This document shows, piece after piece, positions 12,593-52,550 of a stretch of 64,000 nucleotides of DNA. The position numbers and the translations under genes were made by a program. Source of the DNA: a virus; IMG/VR virus record IMGVR_UViG_3300017963_000011, positions 32,001-96,000 of that record, one strand, 5' to 3'. The notes beneath the pieces are model-generated. The model searched no databases, was not told where the DNA came from, and saw nothing but the letters and a program-made list of their open reading frames with translations. Within the stretch, counting starts at the first letter, position 1, and every line of letters begins with the position of its first letter.

Positions 12593-12862
12593 ATGGTGGT
12601 CTCGGTAGATTTCGGAGCGTTTGAAGGTGGGGCGCCTGTCTGGCGTGACGTTTCTGCTTTGACAGAACTCGTTACCAGGCAGCGGTATCAGACCCCGGAA
12701 AAATTTATCGAGACGAGTCTGGCCGTTTACTTCAACGGTCAAGTCCTAGACCGAGAGTCCGACAATGGCTTTACGGTCATCGATGATGAAACGTTTGAGT
12801 TGAAAACAGCGATCCCGGCAGGACGCGTATTTACACTCTTCGTCAGCTACGCCGAACTATAA
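12593..12862 (+). CDS. Small virion protein (single beta module)
   Basis: SLAVYFNGQVL motif shared with 17741-18670 and the C-terminus of 12880-14247. Confidence 0.5.
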   Translation: MVVSVDFGAFEGGAPVWRDVSALTELVTRQRYQTPEKFIETSLAVYFNGQVLDRESDNGFTVIDDETFELKTAIPAGRVFTLFVSYAEL

Positions 12863-12879
12863 GATAGAAAGGAAGAGAG

Positions 12880-14247
12880 ATGGGCCAGAAATCCCTTCTC
12901 GACCAGGATCTACAAATCCGAGCGTCGACCACCTACGATGACGCTATCGCGAGTGCCCAGACTGTTGGTGTTGCCGAGGGACAGACGAACTTGCTCGGCG
13001 ACCTCAACGTGATGCGCACTCTTCTCAAGCTACAGATGGGCGTGACCAACTGGTATGACGCACCCGACCAAACGCTGGCCGACATCTATGGCAGGTTCTT
13101 CATCAACCTGCTTCAGCAGTCGGGCTTCATCGATGTGGCCAGTGGTACGGGCGGATCGACAAACGCCTTCGATACTGCGATCAAGACCATCACCAATCAC
13201 AATAGCGGTGGAGGTAACAGCACGACAGAGGGTGTCGTCGTAGACACCACAAAGGTGCATCGCCTGTCGATCCGTAACCACGATACGCAGGACGCCATCG
13301 ATGATGGATCTGGCAATGAAGTCTACGGTCGTCTGTCGTGGTCTGGCACCGAGTACATCATCACATGGTACTCGATGGTGTCGGGCACGGAGACCGCTTA
13401 CAGCTTCACGTCTTCGGTCGATATCGATCTCGCCTGTGTTCTCGTGTCGCGCGAGTACCAGGATCTGGAATGGGATCGCTTCATCGACCCGTCATTCCAC
13501 GACATGGCCGGTTTCACCGGGTCCATCTCCGACGACAACGTTGTTGTCGATGGCATGCTCTACCTGTACAACGGTCTGACAACTCAGGCTCAGGTCAACG
13601 CGCAGGGTGACAAGCTCGGCCACGGCGACACCGCAGCCGAGGGCGCTCACCTCGTCAAGATCAACGACTCGGCCACGGGTGGCGGCTCCAACGGCTACTT
13701 CACCGGGGATGACGTGCAGGACGCTTTCACGGAACTGAAGACGCAGATCGGCGGCACGACGTCGACGACCTACAACTTCACCGAGAACAACGTCCTGACC
13801 GACAACGACTACATCTACCCCGCGCTGGAGAAGCTCGATCTCAAGTGGGGAGATCTCGCGAGTGTGGCCACGGGCGAGGGCGCCAGCCTCGTCGGTGTCG
13901 AAGACACAGGCGGGTATTTCACGGGCACCGACGTCGAGGCTGTTCTCCAGGAGATCGGTCAGGAACTCGACGATCAGGGAGTCCAGAAGTACCAGCATAC
14001 GGAAACCAGCGTCATCACGGGTGGCACCCCATGGACCCTCCCCGGCTCGCTCCAGTACACCCCGGACTCCGGTGGTCACGCCCAGAACATGGACGTGTAC
14101 CTGGAAGGCCAGTTGCAGCACGGCGGTATCCTCACGGACACCACGACCGACTACCAGGAAGCCGCAACGGGTGCTCTGCGCACGCAGATCACTTGGAACA
14201 AGACCATCCCGGCCAACCGCAATTTCACGTTCATGGTTCGCAAGTAG
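12880..14247 (+). CDS. Virion structural protein, probably abundant
   Basis: Strong C-ending codon bias; duplicated EGA.LV..D..GYFTG.DV..A..E motif; followed by a GC hairpin. Confidence 0.6.
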   Translation: MGQKSLLDQDLQIRASTTYDDAIASAQTVGVAEGQTNLLGDLNVMRTLLKLQMGVTNWYDAPDQTLADIYGRFFINLLQQSGFIDVASGTGGSTNAFDTAIKTITNHNSGGGNSTTEGVVVDTTKVHRLSIRNHDTQDAIDDGSGNEVYGRLSWSGTEYIITWYSMVSGTETAYSFTSSVDIDLACVLVSREYQDLEWDRFIDPSFHDMAGFTGSISDDNVVVDGMLYLYNGLTTQAQVNAQGDKLGHGDTAAEGAHLVKINDSATGGGSNGYFTGDDVQDAFTELKTQIGGTTSTTYNFTENNVLTDNDYIYPALEKLDLKWGDLASVATGEGASLVGVEDTGGYFTGTDVEAVLQEIGQELDDQGVQKYQHTETSVITGGTPWTLPGSLQYTPDSGGHAQNMDVYLEGQLQHGGILTDTTTDYQEAATGALRTQITWNKTIPANRNFTFMVRK

Positions 14248-31506: not shown

Positions 31507-32605
31507 CTTCGTCTTCTTCCTTCTTGAGCGTTTCGACCTGATCTCTGAGCTTGTTGAAGGTCGTTGGGTAGTTCGCACACCACTCGCGCACTGCACGCAT
31601 TCCCTGGCCGATGGTCTTCTCCTTGTAGCTGAACCACCCGTTGCTGGCCTTCTCGATCAGATCGAATGAGATAGCATCCTCGATGATGAGTGTGTACGGG
31701 CAAAAGCCCTCACCGTAGTAGAAGGGGATCTCTACCTCTTTGCCGAGACAGGGGCCGACCTGATCCTTCTTGATGACAACCCGGATCACATGGCCGACAG
31801 TCTCACCCTTCTCCTTGAGGTTGCGCAACTTGTTCATGAAGATCCGCATGGCCGCGAAGTGGCGAAATGCCTTGGCGCCGGGCGAGTCCCAATAGACGTA
31901 GTTCGAGCCCTTCTGCTGAACGAGGCGAGCCTGATTGAGCCATACTACGCAGCAACGGCTTTTGCCAACAGGACCAGAGATCTTGCGGCAATGCTGGGAC
32001 ATGATCCTCGCCTGGAGAGCATAGTGTTGCTTGCCCACAGCGTTTTCCTCTTCCTCTTTGGGAAGGATCGCTGCGGCTGAGTCACCGACGATCAGATCGA
32101 AGGCATGGGACTTGACCAACTGTTCCATCTTGTTCGTGCCTTCTTCTGCCGTGTCGGGCTGGTAGAAGCGGAAGCCGTTGTCTTCGAGCACCTTCTTCTT
32201 TTTGCCTTTGATCTTGATGTACTCGGGATGGACGAGGCCGTATGTGTTCTCGGCATAGAAGGCGTCATGCTTTGTCTCGAAATCAACAAAGGCTCCCCGG
32301 CCGGGAGCCTTTGGATTGGCAGCGTCAAGCGTTGGAAGATCGTTCTCCTTTGCGATCAGGAACTTCTCCTGGATGACCGACAGGGCTTTGTATGCCTTAG
32401 AAGTCTTGCCCACATTCTCTGGAGCAAAGATCTCGACGATGCGGCCACGGGGGAGGCCACCACCACTGGCTCGATCGAATTCTGGAATGCCCGTAGGAAT
32501 GCGCTCGATCTTCTTGATGCCGTCGCTGAACGTTGTCGCCTTGCATAGCTGCTCATCGAGCCGGTTGAGTTCAGCTTGCATGTCGAAGGCTTTCTTCTTT
32601 GCCAT
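31436..32605 (-). CDS. recA: RecA recombinase
   Basis: IPTG..FD..GGGLPRGRIVEIFAPENVGKT, DSAAA, LQARIMSQ, WLNQ. Confidence 0.95.
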   Translation of the reverse strand: MAKKKAFDMQAELNRLDEQLCKATTFSDGIKKIERIPTGIPEFDRASGGGLPRGRIVEIFAPENVGKTSKAYKALSVIQEKFLIAKENDLPTLDAANPKAPGRGAFVDFETKHDAFYAENTYGLVHPEYIKIKGKKKKVLEDNGFRFYQPDTAEEGTNKMEQLVKSHAFDLIVGDSAAAILPKEEEENAVGKQHYALQARIMSQHCRKISGPVGKSRCCVVWLNQARLVQQKGSNYVYWDSPGAKAFRHFAAMRIFMNKLRNLKEKGETVGHVIRVVIKKDQVGPCLGKEVEIPFYYGEGFCPYTLIIEDAISFDLIEKASNGWFSYKEKTIGQGMRAVREWCANYPTTFNKLRDQVETLKKEEDEDADQEDEVSELSESQDDDIDLDW

Positions 32606-34126: not shown

Positions 34127-34636
34127 TCAGTCTGGGCTTCCACGGTTGATAGTTTTCTTCATCGACATGATCATCATTGACTTGGTTGCAAATGGTTCAA
34201 CAAGGGCTTTCACAGCGGAGTCGAATACGTACTGAAATCTCAGGATCGCCTCCCTCCTAAGTCGATAGCCCTTCGTCACCATGATCTCGTCGTCAACTTC
34301 TCGTTCTTTGACTTCTCCTGGCCTCGGCCCTCTCAATCTTGTCGCAGTGCCGTAATAGACACTCAGTTGATGCTTCCTTTCTTCGTGTATCTTCACCCGG
34401 ACGGCGCGCCTTCTTCGAGCCATCCAGATCTTGAACTCTTCTTGCGCTGATTCGAGCTTCCCTTTCACCTCGGCCCAGAAGAGGCCGATATCTGCCATCG
34501 TGTCGGCTGCCTTCTCTCCGTCCTTTATCAGTCCAACGGCATCGCGAGAGATTGGGAGTTGTTTGCGTAACTTCCCGATCTCTTTAGTCTTCTCCTGAGC
34601 CCACTTCTTCGAGCCCTTCCAAGAGTCCTTTATCAC
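34127..34636 (-). CDS. Helical protein, possibly UvsY-like recombination mediator
   Basis: Position and helical pattern only. Confidence 0.35.
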   Translation of the reverse strand: MIKDSWKGSKKWAQEKTKEIGKLRKQLPISRDAVGLIKDGEKAADTMADIGLFWAEVKGKLESAQEEFKIWMARRRRAVRVKIHEERKHQLSVYYGTATRLRGPRPGEVKEREVDDEIMVTKGYRLRREAILRFQYVFDSAVKALVEPFATKSMMIMSMKKTINRGSPD

Positions 34637-37313
34637 GAGCCCACTCCGTCACTGCTTTCTTGTCTGAGACGTGCATAGACTTCATTCCCCACATGAGAGT
34701 ATATGCACGATCACGTCGTTTTGGATCACTCAGTCCTTTCTTAAATCTCTCTATTCTCTTCTGTCTTTTAGCCTCGTCGTCAGGGTTGCACGACTCCCAT
34801 GGGATGTCGGGTTGTACAGCGTCGAGTACCCTCTTCAACTTGGAAAAGATGAGTTTCGACCAGTAGTGATTGCGGTCGAGTTTGAGATCCCTTTGGAGGA
34901 AACGCTCGATCTGCTCACCTTGTTGTAGCTTCTCGTCAGACTCGATGATGACGTATCGCAACACATCGCCGATGAAGAACTGATCTTTGTCGGTCCACAT
35001 CTTGCGAACAATCCTGGCGTGGACAGGTTCATTAGCGTAGTCATCCGGCGCCTTCAAGACCCTCGTATGGATCACGAACTGCTCGATGATGTCTGTATCG
35101 TCAATCGCCATCTCGAAGAACTTGTCGGCTTCTTTGAGAACCCACCTACGCAACTTCTCTGGGTCGTTGAATGAACGCTTCAGGATCAACTTGCGCACCA
35201 GCTTTTTCTGGAGCTTGGCGGCATAGGGGATCGTGTTACGCTTTACGTAGTCGATGCCCATCGCCTCCCACTCTTTGGAGTGGCGGTTCCAGCCAATGTA
35301 GTTCTTCTTGCCGATCAGGAGAAACCGATGATACATCAACTTCGGTTCGATGCCGTACTTATGCTCGTCAATGTTGAAGTAGTATTTGAGGTTCTCATCC
35401 ATGAACGATCTGAACCAGCGATTGAATGCACGATCGAACTTGCGCAGAGCCTTGCGAGTTCCAAGACGTAGCAAGAAGAAGATCGAGTCCGTGTCACCGT
35501 AGATAGCCGGCGTGCCGAACTTCTCCATGGCGCCTGTGCGGATCATGTTGATGATGACCTGGCACCCTAGTGTGATCGTGCAAGCGATGGCGTGAGAGTA
35601 GCAGCGATTCTTGTGACTCGACATGTAGCCGAACACCACGTTACCCATCAACTTGTAGGCGAGGTTGTACTGCTTGGCGATTTTATACTCGCGGCTCTCC
35701 CTGTACAAGAGATCGGTGTCTTCGGCGTGTTCGATGTCAATGCGCTTCATCTCATCTTTATAGACGCTGCGCTCTTGAACGAAGGTCTCTAACATCTCAT
35801 GGACGAGCGATGTTGGCTCCTTGAGAAAGAAGACTTGCTTCTTGTAGACAAACACCAGATCGCCGCCGCAATGCTCCGTCTTGACGAATGGCTTCAGGAT
35901 GTTTAGAGACTTGAGCGTGATGTGTTTCTGGATCTCGACAGTGAGCCACGAGTGTAGCGCTACCACGGCTTCTTCATCAATATCCTTGATCCGTATGCGC
36001 CACCAGTCTTTAGAATGCTTGACTCTGTAGCCAGTCTTCTCACACCACTCTTCGATCAACTTGTACATCAACTTGATGACGATGTAGATAGGAGAGACGA
36101 TCATCTCTGAGGTGTCATGTTTGTGAAGATCTTGCTCGTCGATGATCCTGAGAGTTTCAGGCGAGATGTTGAAGGCCCGCATGGTTGTCGAGTAATACTG
36201 GTTCAAGTCCCACACGTATGCGTTGTCATAGATGCCAGTGTCTTCTCGGATGACTCGGCCCCCCGGCATCTGGATCTTCAGACGCTCGTGCTTGGTTGGC
36301 AGCGCCACCTTCCTCCCGTGAGCCAGCCGCAGAAGATACATGTCAGTGAGACGAGTATTCCAGAAGCGGTTGATGAAGTTGCCACAGAGCTTGCACTGGA
36401 GCACCATCGTGTCGATGGCTTCGAGATGCTCGTCGAGCTTCTTGAGGAGCACAACGTCCTTGATGTTGTATTGCTTGTGGACTTCTGGATATTTCTTCCA
36501 CGTCTCGTAGAACCCTGCCGGCATCACCATCTTTCTTTCGTTGAGGAAGTGTTCAGACAGGGCGTCCAGGGAGAAACGGCTCGGGCCTTCCTTGTCAAAC
36601 TTGAACAGGTCTACAATCCGCTCGTGGAGATCGATGTGGATCATGTCGCTAAGATCGAATTCGATGCCGTGGTAGCGGCACCTTGCCTTGATGTACGGAA
36701 GGTCAAACTCTCGACTGTAGAAGCCGACGATCATCGTGTAGCGACGTAGCGTCTGGACCATTTTGCGCAGGAGCCGTCCCTCGTTACCGGAGGTGAGGTA
36801 ACGAACTTCCCCGTAGTTGTCGACCACAGCCATCGAAAGGATACGTGTGGCACCGATCTCGATCTCCTTGTTGCGGTCGTCGGTCTCGATGTCGAAGTAG
36901 CCCTTGTAGTAATCGTCCTCGATCTCTGGGCGTAGGTCGATGAGTAGTCGGTCCAGGGATGTCAGGTCTGACTCGAAATCCTCGATGCCAAGCGCTGCTA
37001 GTCGATCGAGGAGTTCGAGCTTCTGATCTGTTTCGCCATCCTCGATCTTGAATTCCGGGAGGTTTTTGTTCTTGACGTAGATCCGCACGAAGTCATCACC
37101 ATAGGGGGCGTAACCCTGGATTTCTTTGTCTCTCTTCATGCACTTGAACATGTCCTTGTGTTGAAGAAAGTCTGTCTTCTTGATCAAGAAGTAGTAGCGA
37201 TGGCGACTTTGCGGGACGTCGATGAACTTGCGAACATGGCCGACCTGATAAAAAAGACGCACGGTACTGCCTAAGCAGATACCGTGCGTAAATTTTCTAT
37301 TCGGAAGTTCCAT
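34584..37313 (-). CDS. Family B DNA polymerase
   Basis: Exonuclease motifs FDIETD, FDLPYI, YNIKD; polymerase motifs WDLNQYYST, KLMGNVVFG, YGDTDS, KKNY. Confidence 0.92.
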   Translation of the reverse strand: MELPNRKFTHGICLGSTVRLFYQVGHVRKFIDVPQSRHRYYFLIKKTDFLQHKDMFKCMKRDKEIQGYAPYGDDFVRIYVKNKNLPEFKIEDGETDQKLELLDRLAALGIEDFESDLTSLDRLLIDLRPEIEDDYYKGYFDIETDDRNKEIEIGATRILSMAVVDNYGEVRYLTSGNEGRLLRKMVQTLRRYTMIVGFYSREFDLPYIKARCRYHGIEFDLSDMIHIDLHERIVDLFKFDKEGPSRFSLDALSEHFLNERKMVMPAGFYETWKKYPEVHKQYNIKDVVLLKKLDEHLEAIDTMVLQCKLCGNFINRFWNTRLTDMYLLRLAHGRKVALPTKHERLKIQMPGGRVIREDTGIYDNAYVWDLNQYYSTTMRAFNISPETLRIIDEQDLHKHDTSEMIVSPIYIVIKLMYKLIEEWCEKTGYRVKHSKDWWRIRIKDIDEEAVVALHSWLTVEIQKHITLKSLNILKPFVKTEHCGGDLVFVYKKQVFFLKEPTSLVHEMLETFVQERSVYKDEMKRIDIEHAEDTDLLYRESREYKIAKQYNLAYKLMGNVVFGYMSSHKNRCYSHAIACTITLGCQVIINMIRTGAMEKFGTPAIYGDTDSIFFLLRLGTRKALRKFDRAFNRWFRSFMDENLKYYFNIDEHKYGIEPKLMYHRFLLIGKKNYIGWNRHSKEWEAMGIDYVKRNTIPYAAKLQKKLVRKLILKRSFNDPEKLRRWVLKEADKFFEMAIDDTDIIEQFVIHTRVLKAPDDYANEPVHARIVRKMWTDKDQFFIGDVLRYVIIESDEKLQQGEQIERFLQRDLKLDRNHYWSKLIFSKLKRVLDAVQPDIPWESCNPDDEAKRQKRIERFKKGLSDPKRRDRAYTLMWGMKSMHVSDKKAVTEWARDKGLLEGLEEVGSGED

Positions 37314-37578
37314 TGGGCATCTTCTTCCCAAACATCTCGATGAGCTTCTGTGCGATCACAAGCCGCTGACTGTCGCAGAACTGGAATGCCTCCGGGTCGT
37401 TCTGCCAGAGATGGGCTGCCGCTGCGCCGCCAGCGATGTCCAGCCTTTCTCCGAGCTTCTCAAGAGCACCACATGCGCCACTGTACTCGTCGGTCACGCG
37501 CAAGTCGAGTTCTGGGATGCGGGCTTCTCCGTAACCGCTGTCTTCGCCTTCCACGATGATGTGGAATGTCTTCATCAT
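37297..37578 (-). CDS. HicB-like protein
   Basis: KTFHIIVEGEDSGYGEARIPEL resembles the HicB N-terminal fold. Confidence 0.45.
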   Translation of the reverse strand: MMKTFHIIVEGEDSGYGEARIPELDLRVTDEYSGACGALEKLGERLDIAGGAAAAHLWQNDPEAFQFCDSQRLVIAQKLIEMFGKKMPNGTSE

Positions 37579-37579
37579 G

Positions 37580-37843
37580 TCAAGCCTCACTCTCTGTTAA
37601 TTCTGCGAAACCATCGCCATGCCTGCTCTTGATAACCTTGATCGTGAGAGCCCTAGCGCCATCTGGCAACAAAGCCATTACGCTTGAGCAGTGATCGGCT
37701 ACTCTGGTGCTCTCTGTGAGTGCTGACAATGGAGGGCGGCGTGAGTTGAGAGGCGCAACATAGATGGCCAAGCCGTTCTTGCCATACTTCAATGCATGTA
37801 GCAGTTCTTGAAAGATCCGTTCCCTAATCAGTTCGTATGCCAT
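37580..37843 (-). CDS. Hypothetical protein
   Basis: SD GGAG before MAYELIRE. Confidence 0.45.
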   Translation of the reverse strand: MAYELIRERIFQELLHALKYGKNGLAIYVAPLNSRRPPLSALTESTRVADHCSSVMALLPDGARALTIKVIKSRHGDGFAELTESEA

Positions 37844-37859
37844 TGTCTTCTCCGTCCTG

Positions 37860-38033
37860 TTATAGAACCCCAATGTAGTCCACAAACTGGATGTCGTTAT
37901 CTTCTGGAAACCACCCGAGATAAATGAGCCTGTCTTTTGGAATTTGCTTGGCGTAGAAAAAATAGTTATCGTTTTCTTCTAATATACTCAGCTTATTTAC
38001 TGTTTCTTGTATCTCTTCCCAGGATGGTTTCAT
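37860..38033 (-). CDS. AT-rich 57-aa hypothetical protein (not in ORF track)
   Basis: MKPSWEEIQETVNKLSILEENDNYFFYAKQIPKDRLIYLGWFPEDNDIQFVDYIGVL; SD AAAGGA right after palindrome A. Confidence 0.55.
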   Translation of the reverse strand: MKPSWEEIQETVNKLSILEENDNYFFYAKQIPKDRLIYLGWFPEDNDIQFVDYIGVL

Positions 38034-38063
38034 GATCCGTCCTTTCTAGTCTCGGCGCCGAGA

Positions 38064-38200
38064 CTGATTGCGGTAGCGGGAGATGGAATTCTACCACCCG
38101 ATCATCCTTTGGTTCACGGGAACGCTAGGCATATAGGCTCCATCCTTCCCTAGCCAGCCGCAGGGGGCCTATTCCTGCGAGCCCCGCTACCGTCAATCAG
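38064..38200 (-). ncRNA. Unknown multi-hairpin structured RNA
   Basis: 17-bp closing stem around four hairpins; loop-loop complementarity ATAGGC/GCCTAT. Confidence 0.55.
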
Positions 38201-38209
38201 AATTCTCAT

Positions 38210-38284
38210 TGGGGCTGGTGACAGGAATCGAACCCGCAACCACCTCATTACAAGTGAGGCGCTCTACCATTGAGCCACACCAGC
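38210..38284 (-). tRNA. trnT: tRNA-Thr(UGU)
   Basis: Canonical cloverleaf GCTGGTG/CACCAGC, anticodon loop CTTGTAA, TTCGATT T-loop, encoded CCA. Confidence 0.95.
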
Positions 38285-38373
38285 CCGTCAATAGGCCGAG
38301 GGGCGACTATCCGCTTAGGCGCAGACCGGGACCGCCCTAAGTTTCAGAGGTCGCCTTTCTCCTCGATGATCTT

Positions 38374-38479
38374 TGGTGGAGGGGGCAGGATTCGAACCTG
38401 CAACTGAGACACGGGCGTATGGCGCCTTAAACCCGCGCTCACCGCTTAACGGCGCGTCTGCCACTTCCGCCACCCCTCC
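38374..38479 (-). ncRNA. Non-canonical tRNA-like RNA (Tyr/Leu-type shell, aberrant anticodon and variable region)
   Basis: GGAGGGG/CCCCTCC-ACCA, normal D and T arms; middle is a mini-hairpin with TTAAG loop plus a roughly 37-nt hairpin. Confidence 0.7.
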
Positions 38480-38491
38480 TTGTTCTATACG

Positions 38492-38583
38492 TGCCGGTGC
38501 GCGGGAGTCGAACCCACCACTCCGAGTCTAGTGCCCCGGCGATCATGAGGAGTCGAACCTCACCGTTTCCGAAGGACACCGGC
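38492..38583 (-). ncRNA. tRNA-like RNA with two T-arms
   Basis: GCCGGTG/CACCGGC stem enclosing two GGTTCGACTCC hairpins. Confidence 0.6.
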
Positions 38584-38590
38584 AACTTAG

Positions 38591-38681
38591 CGGGAGAGTG
38601 AGGGATTTCAACCCTCGGGTGACATGCGCCGGCCCCGGAGGTTCAAACCGGGGACCACTCCGTCACGGAGCCCGCTCTCCC
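38591..38681 (-). ncRNA. Non-canonical tRNA-Ser(UGA)-like RNA
   Basis: GGGAGAG/CTCTCCC with discriminator G, 6-bp D-like stem, 9-nt loop TTTGAACCT, T-like arm GAGGG-TTGAAAT-CCCTC. Confidence 0.55.
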
Positions 38682-38690
38682 TGTGATCAC

Positions 38691-38906
38691 CTATTCCTGA
38701 TTGCGGGCCAGCGCTGCGTTGGCCCACATGATGCCTTCCTCGATCTTCCTGATCGCGAGCGTTTGCTCGGCGCACTGCGGCGTGTACTTGAGGATCGCCT
38801 CAGCCGTGATCTTGCCCATGTTGCGGAGACTCTCGAACTTGTGGATGTTCTCTTCCTGCGGTTTGTGGTACGTGAAGATCCTCTTGATGTCGGCTTCCGT
38901 GATCAT
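38691..38906 (-). CDS. Acb2/Tad1-like helical-hairpin protein (candidate immune-signal sponge)
   Basis: 71 aa; FTYHKP...TLAIRKIEEGIMWANAALARN pattern; SD GAGG. Confidence 0.65.
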   Translation of the reverse strand: MITEADIKRIFTYHKPQEENIHKFESLRNMGKITAEAILKYTPQCAEQTLAIRKIEEGIMWANAALARNQE

Positions 38907-39146
38907 TTCTGTCCTCTCAGTATGCACCCTCGGGAGCGCGCCACGGGGACAGGATGGCATCTCTCCCGAGAGCGACTTTCAGTCCCCTGAGCCAGCCATG
39001 GCTATCGGCCTATCGTGCGCTAAGTATTCTACCCTAGCGCAAGGTAACGGAGCGCTACCACCGGCTGATCCTGGGAAGTATATCCTGCCCCTTTCCCAGG
39101 CCACCGTGTCAGGTCACTTTTTCAACACGGTGGTAGCGCTACCACT

Positions 39147-40112
39147 TTACTTCTTCTTGCCCTTGCCAGCAGCGAGCACGTCCTTGATGACGGAGCGCCA
39201 CTCGTTGATCTCTTCCAGGTTGAGCTTGAGGGCTTCCTGCGCGCCAGCGTCGAGGACGAGGCTCTTGCGCTTGGCGAGCTTCTTGGCGTCCTGGAACTTG
39301 CCCTGGAGATTGGTGGTCGTGTTCTTGACGAACTTGATGAACAGTTCCACCGGGTCTTTCCGGCCGGGATCTTCGTCACCGAGCAGCTTGGCCCGGTCCT
39401 TCATCACGCTCTCGCGGAACTCGCGGCTCGTCTGGTCGGCGATCTTCTTTTGGTTCTTCTCTAGGTACTTGACCGGGTTCGGGTGGGCCAGGACGGCGAA
39501 CAGCTTGTACTGGCCATCGACCGAATCGAGGAGTTCGGGCTTGTCCTTGAAGGTCTTGTACGCTTTGATGTACCGGATGCAGACGGAGCGCTCGTAGTTG
39601 ATCTTCTCGCGGCACCACTTGTCGAAGTCGTCGGGTGTGAGGATCTCCTGGACCTCTTGCATGAGGGGTGCCGACTTCATCACGAGATTGACGAAGGCCG
39701 TGCGGGTCTTGTCCTTGAGGTCGTTGATCTTGACCGCTGCCTCGGCGGCCCTCTTCTTGGCCTCCTTCGCCGAGACTGCCTTCTTCTCGGGCTTGGCGAG
39801 CTTCTTGCCGACCTTCTTCTTGACCTTCTCCTTCGGCTTCTCGGCCTTGATCTTGAGGGGCTTCTTGACCTTCTTCTTCTTGCTGGCGAGCTTCTTGACG
39901 GCCGCCTTCTTCTGCTCGGCCGTGGGCTTTTTCTTGACTACCTTCTTCTTGACCACCTTCTTCTTGGCAGCGGCCTTCTTGACCACCTTCTTCTTGGCAG
40001 CGGCCTTCTTCTTCGGGCTGGACCCCTTGCACTTCTCGGCCTGATCGCAGAGTTCGCACTCGAAGTCGTTCTCGTCGTAATTTCCGAATCGGTCGCACTT
40101 GTCCTTTGCCAT
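39147..40112 (-). CDS. Lys/Ala-rich histone H1-like protein with N-terminal Cys cluster and a C-terminal helical DNA-binding-like domain
   Basis: KKAAAKKKVV repeats; four N-terminal Cys; FDKWC...RYIK resembles DUF3102-like domains; SD GGAGGT. Confidence 0.65.
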   Translation of the reverse strand: MAKDKCDRFGNYDENDFECELCDQAEKCKGSSPKKKAAAKKKVVKKAAAKKKVVKKKVVKKKPTAEQKKAAVKKLASKKKKVKKPLKIKAEKPKEKVKKKVGKKLAKPEKKAVSAKEAKKRAAEAAVKINDLKDKTRTAFVNLVMKSAPLMQEVQEILTPDDFDKWCREKINYERSVCIRYIKAYKTFKDKPELLDSVDGQYKLFAVLAHPNPVKYLEKNQKKIADQTSREFRESVMKDRAKLLGDEDPGRKDPVELFIKFVKNTTTNLQGKFQDAKKLAKRKSLVLDAGAQEALKLNLEEINEWRSVIKDVLAAGKGKKK

Positions 40113-47048: not shown

Positions 47049-47543
47049 TTATCTGAACCCTGCCAGAGTGGCGGGGTTTAGTGTTAGTAGCCTCCTTTTC
47101 CTGGGCGACTCCTTGAAGCTGTAGTAGTCATCCTCTCCGATGATGATGTGGTCGAGCACCTCGATCTTGAGGAAGGCGCAGAGCATCACCACTGCCTTAG
47201 TGAGCATCACATCCGGCATACTGGGCTCAGGCCCACAGCCGGGGTGGTTGTGGAAGATGACGATCTTCTTGCCGCCCACCATGATGATGTGGCGTAGCAG
47301 GGCAGTGATATCTACCACTGACATGTCAGAGTCTCCAGCGTTGATCTGAGACTCGCCGATGTACCTCTTCTCCAGGTCCAGCGCTACCACCAGGAAGCGC
47401 TCGTTGGTGTACTTGCCGATGGCCTTCCTGCCGTGCTCGGCGATGTCGCAGACGTACTCGAAATTGATGTGGTCGATGCGTCGGTCAGTCGTCTTCCAGA
47501 CGACCTCGAATTCTTTGGCGAATCTAGGCGTCTCCTCCTCCAT
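47049..47543 (-). CDS. radC: RadC-like JAB/MPN domain protein
   Basis: NERFLVVALD, IFHNHPG..PEPS.PD, EVLDHIIIG. Confidence 0.9.
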   Translation of the reverse strand: MEEETPRFAKEFEVVWKTTDRRIDHINFEYVCDIAEHGRKAIGKYTNERFLVVALDLEKRYIGESQINAGDSDMSVVDITALLRHIIMVGGKKIVIFHNHPGCGPEPSMPDVMLTKAVVMLCAFLKIEVLDHIIIGEDDYYSFKESPRKRRLLTLNPATLAGFR

Positions 47544-48210
47544 CGTCGTCCACCTCCAGTGCTCGACCATCGCTGGTGTGCATGAGTGCGCAGGCCATGC
47601 AGACGTAGATCCTGCGGCCATATTTCTCGCTTTCTTGTGGATCGTATTCGAGGATCTCCCCGCACTCGGAGCATTCGATCGGATCATTGTACTCGTCATA
47701 GATTGCCAGGACCAGATCGTCATCCACAGTACACGTTTCCTTTCGGGTAGGGGTAGGCGATGGTCTTGCCGTCTTCGGTCTTGATCTCTCCGTGCTTGAT
47801 CTTGTCCGTCTTGCCCAGGAAGAAATCGTGACGGATGTTGTGATCGGGGCACTCGATCGTGCCATCCTGATTGAAGATGAAGACTAGCTTCTCGGGCTTA
47901 TCCACATCGTTGTCCACAGTATCCACACCCTCTCATTCTCGGCGCCGAGATTAGTTGACCTCTGGGTGGCTGCTTGCGTAGAGGTTGATCTCGGCCCACC
48001 ATACGAGGTAGTCGTCGTCCTTTGACCAGAGCCAGTTCCAGTAGTGGTGCTCCCCCGGCCAGTTAGGCCGGTCCCGCATTAGATAGTGGAAGGACTCAGG
48101 GTCATCCTCGAATAGCAGGAACAGCCTCTGGCGCAAGAGGCGGAACTCCAGCTTCTTCTTGTACTGGTAGAACAGAACCCTCTTGCGCCTGACCGGATCG
48201 AAGACCCAAC

Positions 48211-48923: not shown

Positions 48924-50744
48924 CTACAACCTGACTTTCTTCTTCACGCGCTTCTTGCCGTTTCCTTTGGCACGGTGCTTGTCGGGATCGTAGGCGAGCG
49001 GGATGTTGCCGTCCAGTGCCCACTGCCTGTACTGCTCGGTCCTCTCTGGGTGAGTCACGCTTGCCGGCGTGGTATTCTTGATCGTCTCCAGGAACATAGC
49101 CGTTGTGGCCTTCTGGTCTGGAGCCCGGTAGGCTTTCTTGAGCACGGCCTTCGCCAAGCTCTCGATTTCGGAACCGGACCACCCTTCCAGGTCCACAGCG
49201 ATGCGGCAGATCTCGAAGTCCTCGGAGTTGTAGTTGTTCATCTCGTTCCGTCGCTTGTCGATGTGATATCGCAGGATCTGCTCGCGAGCCTCTGGCTCGG
49301 TCGGGAGATCCATGAACCACTTGCCATCGGTGTCGATGCGGTGGCCACCGAACAACTCGGGCGGCAGCTTGCTTGGGTCGTTGCTGGTGAAGATGAAGTA
49401 GACGCCCTCCCGCTTCTTATGATCCGAGAGAAAGCTCAGGAACGTTCCGAAGAAGCGCTTGGTCGTGCCGGCGTCCACTTTGTCGGAACTGTCCGACCCG
49501 CCCAGCCCCTTCTCCACCTCGTCGATCACCACGAACACCGGGCTCAGTGCCACACAGGTGTCCAGCGCCCGCCTGAGCTTGGCGTTCGTTTCACCGATGT
49601 GCGAGGAGAAGCATTTCTCCAGGCGCAGGATCAGCGTGGGCTTCTTCGCCTTGCTCCCGAGCCTCTTGGCTACGGCCGTTTTGCCGGTCCCGGAGGGGCC
49701 GACGAGCAGACAACCGAGAGGCCACGAGCCGATGAACTCTTTGGCTTTTTTGGTGAAGGCATCGACCAGTTCGTCGAAATACGCCATCAAGTCATCGCAG
49801 CCTTTGATGCCTTCGAGTGGTTCGTCCGGGTCACAGAACTCCATGATGCCATCCTTGGCGAGGATCTCGGCCTTCATCCGTCCGACCACGAGAGGATCGA
49901 GCACGCCATCCCGACTCAGCGAGAGAGCCGTGATATTCATTGCCTCCTGACGAGTCAGACCTCGGAGCCCTTCGGCGATCTCCGAAACGGTGAACTCGCC
50001 AAGGATCTCGGCTCGTTCCTCGTCCGTTTCTGCGTTCTCAAGGATGACCTCGACAACCTTCTCCAGGTCAGGCTGCGTAGGCAGTGGCAGATGGAACTTG
50101 CGGAAGCATCGGCTCAAGCGCTCGGGCACCTCATCGTTGCCGGTGAGGATGATGATGAGCGAGCCTGTGCTCTCGTATTCCATCTTGCGAAGTCGCAGCA
50201 TGTCGGCCACGCCTTCACGATCGAAGTAGCGGTCGAAGTCTTTGAGGACAACGCAGACCGGCTCATCCTCGGTGGAAGGGACATTCACGGCATCGTCCAG
50301 GGCAGCGCCGAATTGCCGGAAGAAGTTGCGTAGCGAGAGGAAGCGCTCGTTCGGGGCCGGCTCGATGCTGATGCCGCTCTTGAAACGTTGCTTCAACTCG
50401 GGTCGGCTGGAGATCATCTCGCGGATCGTGAACAGCTTGTTGTCCACCGGGCGAGTGACCATCATCTGGCGAATGGGAGCGACGATGTTGCCGTCCTCAT
50501 CGACCTCGTTGTCCTCGTAGTCGGCCAGACCACGGGATGCGTCCCACTCATACACATGCAGCGGCGGGTAGTATTCGTCCTCTCCCTCTTTCGGCCGCTT
50601 GCGTTTGACCTTCTTGTGGACCGCTTCCGCGATCAGTTCCATGGCTTCCTCGTAGTCGTGGGACACCAGCCATGCGGCGCCCCCTCCCGACGAGGCGAAG
50701 TGGTGCAAGTCCTTGACGATGGGCTTGCTGAACTCCTGATCCAT
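48924..50744 (-). CDS. Ycf46-like AAA+ ATPase
   Basis: Degenerate first domain (LKDFD); GPSGTGKT, IDEVEKG, TSNDPSKLPPE. Confidence 0.85.
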   Translation of the reverse strand: MDQEFSKPIVKDLHHFASSGGGAAWLVSHDYEEAMELIAEAVHKKVKRKRPKEGEDEYYPPLHVYEWDASRGLADYEDNEVDEDGNIVAPIRQMMVTRPVDNKLFTIREMISSRPELKQRFKSGISIEPAPNERFLSLRNFFRQFGAALDDAVNVPSTEDEPVCVVLKDFDRYFDREGVADMLRLRKMEYESTGSLIIILTGNDEVPERLSRCFRKFHLPLPTQPDLEKVVEVILENAETDEERAEILGEFTVSEIAEGLRGLTRQEAMNITALSLSRDGVLDPLVVGRMKAEILAKDGIMEFCDPDEPLEGIKGCDDLMAYFDELVDAFTKKAKEFIGSWPLGCLLVGPSGTGKTAVAKRLGSKAKKPTLILRLEKCFSSHIGETNAKLRRALDTCVALSPVFVVIDEVEKGLGGSDSSDKVDAGTTKRFFGTFLSFLSDHKKREGVYFIFTSNDPSKLPPELFGGHRIDTDGKWFMDLPTEPEAREQILRYHIDKRRNEMNNYNSEDFEICRIAVDLEGWSGSEIESLAKAVLKKAYRAPDQKATTAMFLETIKNTTPASVTHPERTEQYRQWALDGNIPLAYDPDKHRAKGNGKKRVKKKVRL

Positions 50745-50776
50745 TGTATTCCGTCCTCTCATTCTCGGCGCCGAGA

Positions 50777-51800: not shown

Positions 51801-52550
51801 TTACCTCCTTGACAGCCGGTACAAGACCGGCTTCTGTTTGAACCAGGGGCGCAGCGCATTCTTGTGTAGCGCTACCACCTCGTCAATGTCGAACAGGTTC
51901 GTGATGGCTCGGGTGTTCCTGCGCTTGGCTTTCTTGGAGAAGAAGCCCTTGGGCAGCACCACCACCGCGCGTGCTTTCTCGTAGAGCTTGGCGACTCGCA
52001 GTAGCATCGTCATTGCTATGTCAGCCACGCCTTGCTGTTTCCCGGTCGGTGGGTTGAGCAGCACCACGTTGGGTTGGAACGTAGGACGTGTCAGTGAGAA
52101 ATTCTTATACTCGACATGTTCGTATCTCGGGTATTCGAGAAAGTCCCGGCACATGATGTGTAGCTTCGGGTCCAGTTCCTTTGATACCTCGACGAGCCAC
52201 TTGTCGATCTCGTAGCCGATGGTTTTGCCACCCGCAGCTTGTGCTACCTTGAGCAGCACACCGATGCCGGCGCAAGGGTCCATGACTGTCTCACCTTCTT
52301 CGATCTCGGCAAGCTCGACCATCTTGATCGCCACCTTCTTCGGCGTGAACCATGCCGACTTGGGCGCACCCTTGATGTTGATGAGGTGATCCCACAACTC
52401 GATCGCCAGGGCGAATGGTGTGTCCTCGTATTCGAGTTCAGTGAGATGCCCTAACTTGCTGAAGCCGAAAATGGATCGAGCATAGCGCTCTCGCCAGTTG
52501 CTAGAGTTAGAGATAAACTCGGCGTACTCGACCACCGATAGCTTGCTCAT
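51801..52550 (-). CDS. SAM-dependent (probably N6-adenine DNA) methyltransferase
   Basis: WFTP, MDPCAGIG, GYEID, LLNPP. Confidence 0.8.
   Translation of the reverse strand: MSKLSVVEYAEFISNSSNWRERYARSIFGFSKLGHLTELEYEDTPFALAIELWDHLINIKGAPKSAWFTPKKVAIKMVELAEIEEGETVMDPCAGIGVLLKVAQAAGGKTIGYEIDKWLVEVSKELDPKLHIMCRDFLEYPRYEHVEYKNFSLTRPTFQPNVVLLNPPTGKQQGVADIAMTMLLRVAKLYEKARAVVVLPKGFFSKKAKRRNTRAITNLFDIDEVVALHKNALRPWFKQKPVLYRLSRR

Follow-up and report, generated by a model that had tools for sequence, protein, structure and literature searches.

Layout of the array and its genomic setting

The window, a stretch of 64,000 nt covering positions 32,001–96,000 of the viral record IMGVR_UViG_3300017963_000011, belongs to the 105,134-bp, lytic-type genome of an uncultured DTR phage. 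Between positions 38064 and 38690 of the window, the − strand carries one canonical tRNA-Thr(UGU), three tRNA-shaped RNAs (units A, B, and C), a hairpin (element D), and a further structured RNA (unit F). Read along this strand, these are unit A, a tRNA-Sec/Ser-like RNA (38591–38681; from sequence, fold, and Rfam); unit B, a tRNA-like RNA with two T arms (38492–38583; from fold, Rfam, and a T-arm scan); unit C, the shell of a class-II tRNA of Leu/Tyr type (38374–38479; from sequence, ARAGORN, and the X3 variant described below); element D, a long irregular hairpin lying between unit C and the tRNA-Thr (38290–38372; from fold); the tRNA-Thr itself, with an encoded CCA (38210–38284; from ARAGORN and Rfam RF00005); and unit F, a multi-hairpin RNA of 137 nt (38064–38200; from fold). 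The spacers between units measure 7–12 nt, as is the case for phage tRNA clusters. Open reading frames in the interior of the array are all ≤55 aa with weak starts, and no sigma-70-like promoter or intrinsic terminator was found within or beside it.

Directly upstream on the same strand lies a gene of 71 aa (38691–38906) with an Acb2/Tad1 hairpin domain. Its match to Pfam Acb2_Tad1_hairpin (PF24729; 47.3 bits against a cut-off of 27, E = 2.3e-12), which aligns residues 12–68 with profile positions 1–58 of 58, confirms the predicted product as a member of the Acb2/Tad1 family; the gene also falls in PHROG 1454. At its 3′ end the array terminates on the 16-nt palindrome GTCTCGGCGCCGAGAC (38049–38064), the last of 22 copies of the core TCTCGGCGCCGAGA, all of which are situated between genome positions 70050 and 104266 (window position 38050 to window-relative position 72266, past the window's end). 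The array forms the edge of this palindrome-punctuated accessory-gene region, which also contains a DNA methylase and a RadC-like gene. Its other neighbors are small ORFs without assignment, a family-B DNA polymerase, a sigma-like protein, and a helicase. An earlier note on this DNA, made from the letters alone, had described six back-to-back RNAs on the − strand, one of them a normal tRNA, in DNA free of credible ORFs and running from an Acb2/Tad1-like gene to a palindrome. ARAGORN, Rfam, and folding place all six where it had put them, and the rest of that description agrees with what we observe.

The tRNA-Thr is the only tRNA that ARAGORN calls in the whole genome, and across the array the gathering score of RF00005 (29 bits) is passed only by 38213–38284, within this gene (71.3 bits). 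Its identity to tRNA-Thr genes of other phages, T4-like ones among them, is 80%–87%. Profile searches of the phage genome found no CCA-adding enzyme, RtcB, RNA ligase, Ro60/TROVE (PF05731), or Pth, and likewise no FemAB, L/F-transferase, Acetyltransf_6, or integrase. A match to AAA_33 proved to be the P-loop of an AAA ATPase only.

Architecture and decoding capacity of the tRNA-like units

Units A, B, and C are tRNA-like in architecture, each in a different way. Unit A has a 7-bp acceptor stem (GGGAGAG/CTCTCCC, or alternatively a 9/4 arrangement with one C·A mismatch) and a G discriminator. Its D stem has 6 bp and a loop of 3 nt; next come a 6-bp stem (CCCCGG/CCGGGG) capped by the 9-nt loop TTTGAACCT (in RNA form, UUUGAACCU), a weak variable arm, and a T arm (GAGGG-TTGAAAT-CCCTC) whose loop is UUGAAAU. 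An unpaired A lies between the T stem and the acceptor, G stands in place of C56, and the fold has an energy of −44.3 kcal/mol. The best Rfam match of unit A is tRNA-Sec (RF01852), at 23.9 bits against a gathering score of 47, and ARAGORN calls the unit only at a lowered threshold. Its 6-bp D stem with tiny loop, 6-bp "anticodon" stem, G73, and acceptor/T branch of 13 positions all resemble tRNA-Sec; however, it lacks the UCA anticodon, its loop has 9 nt, its variable arm is weak, and G replaces C56, and there is no sign of selenoprotein machinery.

Unit B has an acceptor stem of 7–8 bp (GCCGGTG(T)/(G)CACCGGC, with the core GCCGGTG/CACCGGC), an A discriminator, and two T loops of sequence GGTTCGACTCC. 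Its long arm consists of 6 bp, a 5 × 5 internal loop, and a further 6 bp under the cap GGUUCGACUCC; this arm is followed by a 4-bp hairpin with an 8-nt loop and then by a normal T arm stacked on the acceptor. It has neither a D arm nor an anticodon loop, and its centroid fold is identical to its MFE fold. The best Rfam match is again tRNA-Sec, at 24.3 bits and likewise below the gathering score of 47. A covariance model built from this single sequence scores other double-T-arm loci at ≤35 bits; most of that score comes from the T loops, and we claim no homology with those loci.

Unit C comes with the acceptor GGAGGGG/CCCCTCC followed by an encoded ACCA, i.e., A73 and CCA; no CCA is encoded by A, B, or F. 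Both its class-II D arm, with GG in the loop, and its T arm are intact, whereas the anticodon arm is cut down to a 3-bp hairpin with a 5-nt loop (CCG-TTAAG-CGG). An extra arm of 10 bp carries a 16-nt loop that contains GGCGCC. The 3′ half of the unit is identical to a phage tRNA-Tyr(GTA) (contig L056), and the 5′ half matches a Bacteroidales tRNA-Leu(GAG). ARAGORN can also read the unit as an ochre suppressor with a 16-nt intron; in the X3 variant that fold loses three of its five anticodon-stem pairs. A tmRNA assignment fares no better, with A3:U70 instead of G3:U70 and a beta_tmRNA match limited to a fragment of 72 positions (23.7 bits against a gathering score of 84). The permuted tmRNAs that ARAGORN predicts at -ps80 were rejected because they have no G3:U70 and their tags are implausible; at default settings no tmRNA is predicted.

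Element D folds at −32.9 kcal/mol (z = −1.79) and matches no Rfam family; jointly with the T arm of unit C it yields partial tmRNA and YrlA alignments at chance level. Unit F is more strongly structured (z = −4.07, with 0 of 200 shuffles folding as well). It is closed by a 10-bp stem (38183–38192 with 38071–38080, pair probabilities ∼1.0) that is lengthened by seven further pairs (38194–38200 with 38064–38070). A T-arm-like hairpin with the loop UAGAAUU adjoins this closing stem, and two loops are complementary over 6 nt (AUAGGC/GCCUAU).

None of units A, B, C, and F has an RF00005 match that survives clan competition, even at E ≤ 10; besides the tRNA-Thr, Rfam at that threshold returns over the array only sub-threshold alignments to tRNA-Sec, a tmRNA fragment, YrlA, and sX4. 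All three of A–C lack an anticodon arm in which a 5-bp stem bears a 7-nt loop with U33 and a purine at 37. Unit A has instead 9 nt on a 6-bp stem, unit B a T-loop or a 4-bp/8-nt hairpin, and unit C the 3-bp/5-nt hairpin, and ARAGORN reports these units only at -ps80, with 2-nt anticodons "(cc)" or "(cg)" or with a C·A-mismatched stem. At the opposite end of the molecule, a 7-bp acceptor on a 5-bp T arm with consensus T loop, plus discriminator, is exact in B and C, and is interrupted in A by the one unpaired junction A, the T loop there being UUGAAAU. We scanned the whole genome for T arms (5 bp, loop TTxxA) in which the 7 nt immediately after the arm are complementary to sequence 55–150 nt upstream: B and C are the only hits, where Markov shuffles give 0.55 hits per genome.

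The units also fall outside the described classes of irregular tRNA. Neither A nor B reaches 47 bits or has the UCA anticodon of tRNA-Sec. With its 7/5-plus-bulge or 9/4 branch (13 positions), A departs from the 12-bp branch (8/4 or 9/3) and normal anticodon loop of allo-tRNAs, as do B and C with an acceptor/T branch of 7/5. The YrlA model (RF02553) gives 18.5 bits (E = 0.53), with its gathering score at 69; the arms of the units are not in permuted order, and PF05731 is absent. Taken together, these data support the view that units A, B, and C are tRNA-derived, structured, and incapable of normal decoding.

Conservation in a soil variant

The only relative of the array that we found is a variant in a soil metagenome (run X3). 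This one variant, known solely through a list of differences, provides all of the comparative evidence. Most of the array is strongly conserved in it. Over 38203–38390 (the tRNA-Thr, element D, and the 3′ end of unit C), no change is listed and ≤2 unlisted differences occur, near piece ends; over 38481–38619 (unit B and the first 28 nt of unit A) there is one unlisted difference; and X3 contigs span all of unit A, for which no difference is listed. The adjoining Acb2 gene has 11 changes in 216 nt, with six codons changed synonymously only and three conservative replacements. Its synonymous divergence of ∼0.15 means that roughly 25–30 neutral changes would be expected per 200 nt. Recent recombination between mosaic phages could account in part for the near-identity of A, B, D, and the tRNA-Thr, which includes the spacers.

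Unit C has diverged by 11 substitutions and a 3-nt loop insertion, and its pairing has been maintained by compensatory evolution. Three pairs have changed on both sides (G30:C36 to C:G, C45:G68 to U:A, and G46:C67 to A:U), G44·U69 has become A:U, and the single pair lost is terminal. The probability of at least three double compensations is 8e-5 by permutation, or 2e-4 if the changes are confined to positions 27–70. Folded alone, unit C of X3 gives exactly the proposed five-arm structure. Covariation is seen in this unit only: A, B, and D are invariant and therefore uninformative on compensatory change.

Unit F evolves fast. In X3 its positions 38133–38202 are replaced by 72 unlike letters that cannot be aligned, and 38050–38132 differs by 12 substitutions and three indels. 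The variant also carries an extra element of 122 nt, located between B and C, and its DNA past the palindrome is unrelated, with a loose end at 38050.

Polymerase-guided locus searches of IMG/VR and JGI metagenomes found no related array; the protein collection held seven polymerase homologs (45%–51% identity), and the closest polymerases of GenBank phages are 22%–26% identical. When collections of viral, metagenome, and genome sequences were scanned with exact and degenerate DNA patterns from A, B, C, and D, no related array was recovered; the matches were unrelated double-T-arm elements, a normal tRNA-Tyr, tRNA-Leu genes, and two permuted YrlA-like loci. A blastn search of the whole array at "distant" settings against 50,697 GenBank phage records matched the tRNA-Thr part only.

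The near absence of change in A, B, and D, together with the compensatory changes in C, argues that the units are selected non-decoding tRNA mimics rather than pseudo-tRNAs. The earlier note had taken them for decoys or mimics, and had named covariation in homologs among its checks; the near-identity of A, B, D, and the tRNA-Thr and the compensatory pairs in unit C bear this out.

Relation to known RNAs and possible roles

In phage T4, the non-decoding small RNAs rnaC and rnaD (species 1 and 2) likewise lie back-to-back with phage tRNAs, including a tRNA-Thr that is 81% identical to the one described here. The strongly structured rnaC (z = −4.57) ends in a canonical T arm (CCGGGUUCGAAUCCCGG) and, behind it, a strand resembling that of an acceptor stem. 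In the blastn search, the T4 RNAs nevertheless show no sequence similarity to our array, which has four or five such RNAs per one tRNA and comprises three perfect 7-bp acceptor stems, one encoded CCA, and one RNA with two T arms.

Irregular tRNA polycistrons have been described from soil and sediment metagenomes as 7/5 and 8/4 tRNA-like arrays (Mukai et al. 2017, PMC5389517), and some irregular tRNAs are charged yet unused in translation, for which regulatory or toxin–antitoxin-linked roles have been proposed (PMC5389517; reviewed in PMC7609411). The allo-tRNAs among known forms are similar to our units in being tRNA-Sec-like and encoded in arrays, with long D and anticodon stems and a long variable arm, but they have recognizable 7-nt anticodon loops and 8/4 or 9/3 branches and are assigned to Acidobacteria. 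Here, the branch is 7/5 (in A, 7 plus bulge plus 5, or 9/4), anticodon loops are absent or of 9 nt, and the carrier is a DTR phage. YrlA RNAs, too, are derived from tRNA, of which they retain the T arm, the D arm, and a stem resembling the acceptor; TruB and DusA modify them, and in M. smegmatis RNase P cleaves the RNA and CCA is added to it (Chen et al. 2014, PMC4201824). Two phage contigs (L057 and L062) carry YrlA-like modules with halves 89%–100% identical to the halves of unit C. The tRNA-like domain of YrlA is, however, circularly permuted on a Ro60-binding stem, whereas the units in the window have the normal order and acceptor ends of their own.

We consider it rather probable that the tRNA-Thr is the sole decoder of this cluster and that A, B, C, and perhaps F are tRNA-derived mimics that, once processed, occupy a tRNA-reading protein. 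What such mimics would have kept is the "top half" of a tRNA, with acceptor stem and T arm coaxial (C has the D/T elbow and an encoded CCA as well), together with class-II features: in A, the D and anticodon stems of tRNA-Sec/Ser type and G73; in C, the Leu-type D arm, long extra arm, and A73. The anticodon domain would have been rebuilt, with loss of the 7-nt anticodon loop. Read-through from the Acb2 gene would make the array part of a leftward early or middle transcript, and co-transcription and processing of the array are plausible predictions. Cleavage by host RNase P, trimming at the 3′ end, and CCA addition by the host's own enzyme would then generate stable RNAs of ∼90–140 nt, like the T4 tRNAs and rnaC/rnaD. 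We infer the transcription, processing, and stability of the mimics, and likewise their target.

That target would recognize tRNA through the acceptor end, the elbow, or a long variable arm and not through the anticodon. The earlier note had suggested titration of anticodon nucleases of PrrC or PARIS type, which appears doubtful because these enzymes recognize anticodon stem-loops of a kind absent from the mimics; a protein that binds tRNA by its acceptor end, elbow, or long variable arm is a more likely target. The class that we prefer is a host tRNA-directed toxin or defense enzyme, such as nucleotidyltransferases of AbiEii/MenT type, CCA-end modifiers of toxSAS/CapRel type, or GNAT toxins, with class-II synthetases or processing enzymes as possible alternatives. 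The AbiEii-family toxin MenT3 selects tRNA via the 3′ end and long variable arm (PMC11541572). The anti-defense island that the same note proposed is doubtful as well: Acb2 is the only recognized counter-defense gene adjoining the array, and the variant DNA past the palindrome is unrelated. What stands of its interpretation is the tRNA-derived and selected nature of the units and the Acb2 assignment; the anticodon-nuclease target and the defense island are weakly supported or doubtful.

Phage RNA mimics are known to neutralize defense, as pseudo-ToxI repeats do against ToxIN and as RNA anti-CRISPRs do. Like these, the array may be a set of phage RNAs mimicking the host RNA ligand of a defense protein, except that there an antitoxin RNA or CRISPR repeats are mimicked, and not tRNA. 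An RNA counter-defense module in the strict sense, in which class-II "top-half" decoys matured by the host soak up abortive-infection toxins that read the acceptor end, elbow, or variable arm (candidates again being AbiEii/MenT nucleotidyltransferases, CapRel-type toxSAS, and GNAT toxins), is conceivable but unlikely. The fast-evolving core of C, unit F, and the extra 122-nt element of the variant would then track host toxin specificity. If true, this would be the first tRNA-mimic anti-defense RNA, beside the Acb2 nucleotide sponge on the same transcript.

Alternatively, the array could act in cis as punctuation, cut by RNase P at A, B, C, and the tRNA-Thr and by RNase III in the closing helix of F (17 bp). 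The cuts would part the Acb2 mRNA from that of the replication genes downstream and set the half-lives of both, while the released RNAs have no role of their own (compare mitochondrial tRNA punctuation and mascRNA). The array does sit between two same-strand coding blocks with no promoter or terminator signal, its terminus is one of 22 intergenic palindromes that resemble transcript punctuation, and RNase P requires a 7-bp acceptor plus T arm (PMC4201824). We nevertheless regard this explanation as unlikely. A single tRNA would be enough as a cut site, leaving five elaborate structures superfluous; RNase P cutting needs no compensatory upkeep of the non-acceptor arms of C; and the conservation of loops indicates that the RNAs, once released, have a function. 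Functionless dead or dying tRNA genes, the recombination scars of a once larger cluster, are highly improbable. Truncated or chimeric tRNA pieces are indeed common in phage arrays (for example, a tRNA followed by T-arm fragments in contigs L058–L060), a double-T-arm element adjoins an integrase in contig L010, and C is itself chimeric, its 5′ half being of Leu type and its 3′ half of Tyr type; yet the helices are all intact, C has its three double compensatory changes, A, B, and D have changed far less than synonymous sites nearby, and the phage has no integrase.

It is very unlikely that A, perhaps with B or C, is charged as an unusual real decoder that reads Ser, stop, or 4–5-base codons (a frameshift or suppressor tRNA). 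Unit A has SerRS-type features (G73 and tRNA-Sec-like stems) and UU-UGA-A in its 9-nt loop, and natural tRNAs with 8-nt loops (PMC7609411) and allo-tRNAs (PMC5389517) exist. Against this, a 5-bp stem topped by a 7- or 8-nt loop with U33 and R37 is found in none of the units, an anticodon-like loop at the proper position is lacking in B and C, and the X3 variant destroys the ochre-suppressor fold of C. Moreover, the phage genes are long ORFs under the standard code, and a scan for +1/+2 frame junctions at codons within the potential reading of A (UUCA, UCAA, GUUC, and GUUCA) was non-discriminating and gave no candidate. The units might also be RNP scaffolds, Y RNA-like partners of host Ro60/Rsr-PNPase or another RNA-repair or decay complex, or else aminoacyl carriers for a non-ribosomal transferase, which is distinctly unlikely. 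The nearest relatives of the halves of C are the circularly permuted YrlA-like modules of the two phage contigs (26.9 and 26.8 bits, E = 0.0014), one of which has a PNKP gene directly downstream, and the T arm of C plus D gives the weak YrlA alignment of 18.5 bits; for a carrier role, LeuRS and SerRS need no anticodon. But within the window YrlA scores no better than chance and far under the gathering score, the units are not permuted, and the TROVE, RtcB, RNA ligase, FemAB, L/F-transferase, and Acetyltransf_6 genes are absent from the phage.

Phage tRNA clusters are usually read as codon supply or as replacements for tRNAs destroyed by host defense. In this array the ratio is inverted, with one decoder and four or five conserved look-alikes unable to decode. 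For annotation this is a caution: every one of these look-alikes escapes Rfam and the standard tRNA finders. To our knowledge, the role of T4 rnaC and rnaD has been unexplained for 50 years. If tRNA mimics of the kind favored here are matured and stable, the array RNAs would be a tractable handle on the purpose of the non-tRNA RNAs in phage tRNA clusters and would bear on whether bacterial viruses, as eukaryotic RNA viruses do, use tRNA mimicry against host proteins.

Anatomy of the array

Between the Acb2/Tad1 hairpin-domain gene (38691-38906, - strand; Pfam 47.3 bits) and a 57-aa ORF at the other flank (37860-38033), about 630 nt of the - strand (38064-38690) hold no credible ORF. The earlier note had described this stretch as a tandem array of about six structured RNAs with one normal tRNA among them; every particular of that observation was confirmed, all the listed units being recovered together with one tRNA-Thr called by ARAGORN and Rfam. 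This tRNA-Thr(UGU) (38210-38284, 71.3 bits) is the sole gene that the two tools report in the array, and the genome has no other tRNA.

The remaining members lie on the same strand, and spacers of 7-12 nt separate the units. Unit A (38591-38681) has the acceptor stem GGGAGAG/CTCTCCC with G73, a 6-bp D stem with a 3-nt loop, a 6-bp stem with the 9-nt loop UUUGAACCU, and the T loop UUGAAAU. Unit B (38492-38583) combines the acceptor GCCGGTG/CACCGGC, A73, and a normal T arm with a long arm capped by a second T loop, GGUUCGACUCC, and has neither D arm nor anticodon loop. Unit C (38374-38479) has the acceptor GGAGGGG/CCCCTCC-A-CCA, a Leu-type D arm with G18G19, and a normal T arm; a 3-bp mini hairpin replaces the anticodon arm and is followed by a 10-bp arm with a 16-nt loop. 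Element D (38290-38372) is a long irregular hairpin, and unit F (38064-38200) is closed by 10+7 bp and is predicted on thermodynamic grounds to fold far better than its shuffles (z -4.07). The array is closed by GTCTCGGCGCCGAGAC at 38049-38064.

With the tRNA-Sec model of Rfam, whose gathering score is 47, units A and B reach ∼24 bits; the tRNA-Thr aside, nothing else in the array comes near any Rfam threshold. A scan of the entire genome for an acceptor stem plus T arm matches only units B and C, against 0.55 matches expected.

Six nucleotides (AUAGGC/GCCUAU) are complementary between the first-hairpin loop of unit F, AAUAGGCCC, and the loop region of its second hairpin, GAGCCUAUAUG (38157-38182 and 38120-38154), and UCCAUC of the T-like arm can also pair with GAUGGA (38139-38144). 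These complementarities suggest a kissing loop or alternative folds.

Uneven divergence and compensatory change in a soil variant

Logan contigs of four public runs were aligned on 37860-38910. Sediment and seawater metagenomes yielded identical DNA, and a soil metagenome (run X3, records 9 and 14) contains a diverged copy; this one variant, known only as a list of differences from the window, is the basis of the comparison. Its Acb2 gene has 11 substitutions in 216 nt, with six codons changed only synonymously and three conservative replacements (I21V, I55V, and G58A), a pattern that implies a synonymous divergence of ∼0.15. Unit B and the first 28 nt of unit A (38481-38619) show a single difference, and the remainder of unit A none listed. 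The aligned piece that spans the tRNA-Thr, element D, and the 3′ end of unit C (38203-38390) likewise has no listed differences and, close to its ends, two unlisted ones at most. Unit C has 11 listed substitutions and a 3-nt insertion, 10 of the substitutions falling within RNA positions 27-68. In unit F, the 3′ third has 12 substitutions and three indels, and 72 unalignable letters stand in place of the 5′ 70 nt. Record 9 also has ∼122 extra nt between units B and C (window 38480/38484; record positions 140-261 unaligned), which may be a further unit, so that array composition would vary between related phages.

Units A, B, and D and the tRNA-Thr offer no substitutions in this one variant with which to test covariation. 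Their near-identity, which extends to loops and spacers, beside a synonymous divergence of ∼0.15 argues for strong constraint, and may partly reflect recent recombination in mosaic phages.

We rebuilt the variant unit C from the difference list. Three pairs are doubly compensated: G30>C with C36>G, which turns the mini hairpin from CCG/CGG into CCC/GGG; C45>U with G68>A; and G46>A with C67>U. In addition, G44>A turns a G.U pair into A.U. Three further changes fall in loops: an AAA insertion (apical loop), G35>A (mini hairpin), and A89>G (T loop). That leaves G27>A and U39>C, of which U39>C breaks one terminal pair. Folded alone (ViennaRNA), the variant forms the acceptor, D arm, mini hairpin, long arm, and T arm. 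When 11 substitutions were placed at random, at least three double-compensated pairs arose in 8e-5 of trials, and in 2e-4 when placement was confined to positions 27-70. Because the compensatory changes keep the fold in the variant, unit C is a structure under selection, and its truncated "anticodon arm" is a maintained feature, not damage. Sequence matches reveal the origin of unit C: the 3′ 29 nt are identical to a phage tRNA-Tyr(GTA) (L056), and the acceptor and D arm of Bacteroidales tRNA-Leu(GAG) match its 5′ 26 nt.

Genomic setting, palindromes, and similar loci

The source record in IMG/VR (105,134 bp, direct terminal repeats), of which the window covers 32001-96000, is rated complete. 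The phage family-B DNA polymerase (34584-37331, - strand) is 22%-26% identical to the best GenBank phage polymerases and 45%-51% identical to seven metagenomic proteins; the lineage is uncultured. Upstream of the array lies an accessory region in which most remaining ORFs have no Pfam family; further upstream, a RadC-like JAB protein, a 612-aa AAA ATPase, and a DNA (N6/N4) methyltransferase (47049-47852, 48924-50762, and 51801-52550, - strand) and many small unknown ORFs are found amid palindrome copies. The anti-defence island proposed in the earlier note finds partial support: the Acb2 gene adjoins the array, but the immediate neighbors are replication and transcription genes, and the downstream one is not kept in the variant.

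The 14-nt palindrome TCTCGGCGCCGAGA has 22 copies, all within genome 70050-104266 (window 38050 to past the window end), the third of the genome that carries accessory/early genes transcribed leftward. Examples lie at 38049-38064, 44401, 47937, 50763, 53386, 54390, 56213, 57170, 57644, 58337, and 59500, and the array sits at the last copy. Since the variant becomes unrelated exactly past this copy (loose end at 38050), the repeated palindrome may separate modules or punctuate transcripts. Its core, GGCGCC, recurs in unit C, within the apical loop of the long arm.

In each of two unrelated phage contigs, L057 (IMGVR_UViG_3300047200_000176, 12830-13290, - strand) and L062 (IMGVR_UViG_3300033069_001798, 780-1300, - strand), two circularly permuted tRNA-like modules follow one another, ordered as T arm, 3′ acceptor strand, 7- to 62-nt loop, 5′ acceptor strand, and D arm. 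The halves of the first module are 89%-100% identical to halves of unit C. In the second, the acceptor strands covary between contigs (CCCGTGC/GCGCGGG vs. CCGCGCC/GGCGCGG), and Rfam YrlA, a bacterial Y RNA with a permuted tRNA-like domain, scores 26.9 and 26.8 bits (E 0.0014), below its gathering score. ARAGORN finds nothing at these modules; in L062, a polynucleotide kinase-phosphatase gene directly follows them.

In 54 IMG/VR viral contigs (L002-L055) there is a pair of exact GGTTCGACTCC T loops spaced 22-50 nt apart; in about 12 of these, as in unit B, a 7-bp acceptor stem closes the element and stacks on its second T arm (L010, L018, L029 with ACCA, L035, L037, L048, L049, and L052 among them). 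Such elements sit within phage tRNA arrays in L036, L038, L045, and L046, and adjoin an integrase in L010; one type is Rfam RAGATH-9 (L012, 97 bits). A common GGGGCTACG...CTAGGNAACGAGG motif is found in L018, L025, L037, and L015, with no Rfam family in L015 and L037, the two searched.

Candidate roles of the units

Several readings could be rejected. No unit has the 7-nt anticodon loop of an ordinary decoder. A tRNA-Sec or allo-tRNA identity is at odds with the scores, branch geometry, and loops; tmRNA is excluded by the lack of G3:U70; and YrlA scores 18.5 bits, the units are not permuted, and the phage has no TROVE gene. Integration scars are contradicted by intact helices and by a phage genome without an integrase. 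ARAGORN's reading of unit C as an ochre suppressor (16-nt intron, UUA anticodon) loses three out of five stem pairs in the variant.

The reading we favor, and consider rather likely, is that the units are functional, non-decoding tRNA mimics. They keep exactly the features read by RNase P, 3′ processing, the CCA-adding enzyme, EF-Tu, and TruB/TrmA, and also what the anticodon-independent synthetases SerRS and LeuRS recognize, and have lost those read by the ribosome and anticodon nucleases. Exotic decoders are one alternative. Dead genes are another; the earlier note had looked to decay without compensation as the mark of plain pseudo-tRNAs, and unit C shows three double compensatory pairs instead. 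Further candidates are cis-acting punctuation and a role as RNP scaffolds or aminoacyl carriers. The tRNA-handling and aminoacyl-transfer enzymes searched for are all absent from the phage, so any partner of the RNAs is probably a host protein.

The units would be expected to arise by read-through from the Acb2 gene, since no sigma-70-type promoter or intrinsic terminator was detected in 37200-39400 except one site further downstream. Read-through would be followed by tRNA-type maturation, as for T4 rnaC/rnaD and for M. smegmatis YrlA, a precedent for such maturation (PMC4201824). The most economical role would be the occupation of a tRNA-binding protein. Anticodon nucleases, the target named in the earlier note, fit the anatomy poorly because anticodon features are discarded; a toxin or enzyme reading the acceptor end, elbow, or long variable arm would fit better. 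An example is MenT3, a CCA-end-modifying toxin of the AbiEii abortive-infection family whose preference for tRNA-Ser works through the variable arm (PMC11541572). That the units are anti-toxin decoys specifically seems improbable.

The closest classical precedent is rnaC/rnaD, two stable RNAs encoded within the tRNA cluster of T4; rnaC folds strongly and has a canonical T arm, although there is no sequence relation. Irregular-tRNA polycistrons are known from soil metatranscriptomes, and some are charged and not used in translation (Mukai et al.; PMC5389517). What is new here is the combination: mimics that outnumber the decoder four or five to one, in three distinct architectures, one of them a two-T-arm form that Rfam lacks; compensatory changes that directly support one member; and hypervariable units alongside invariant ones.
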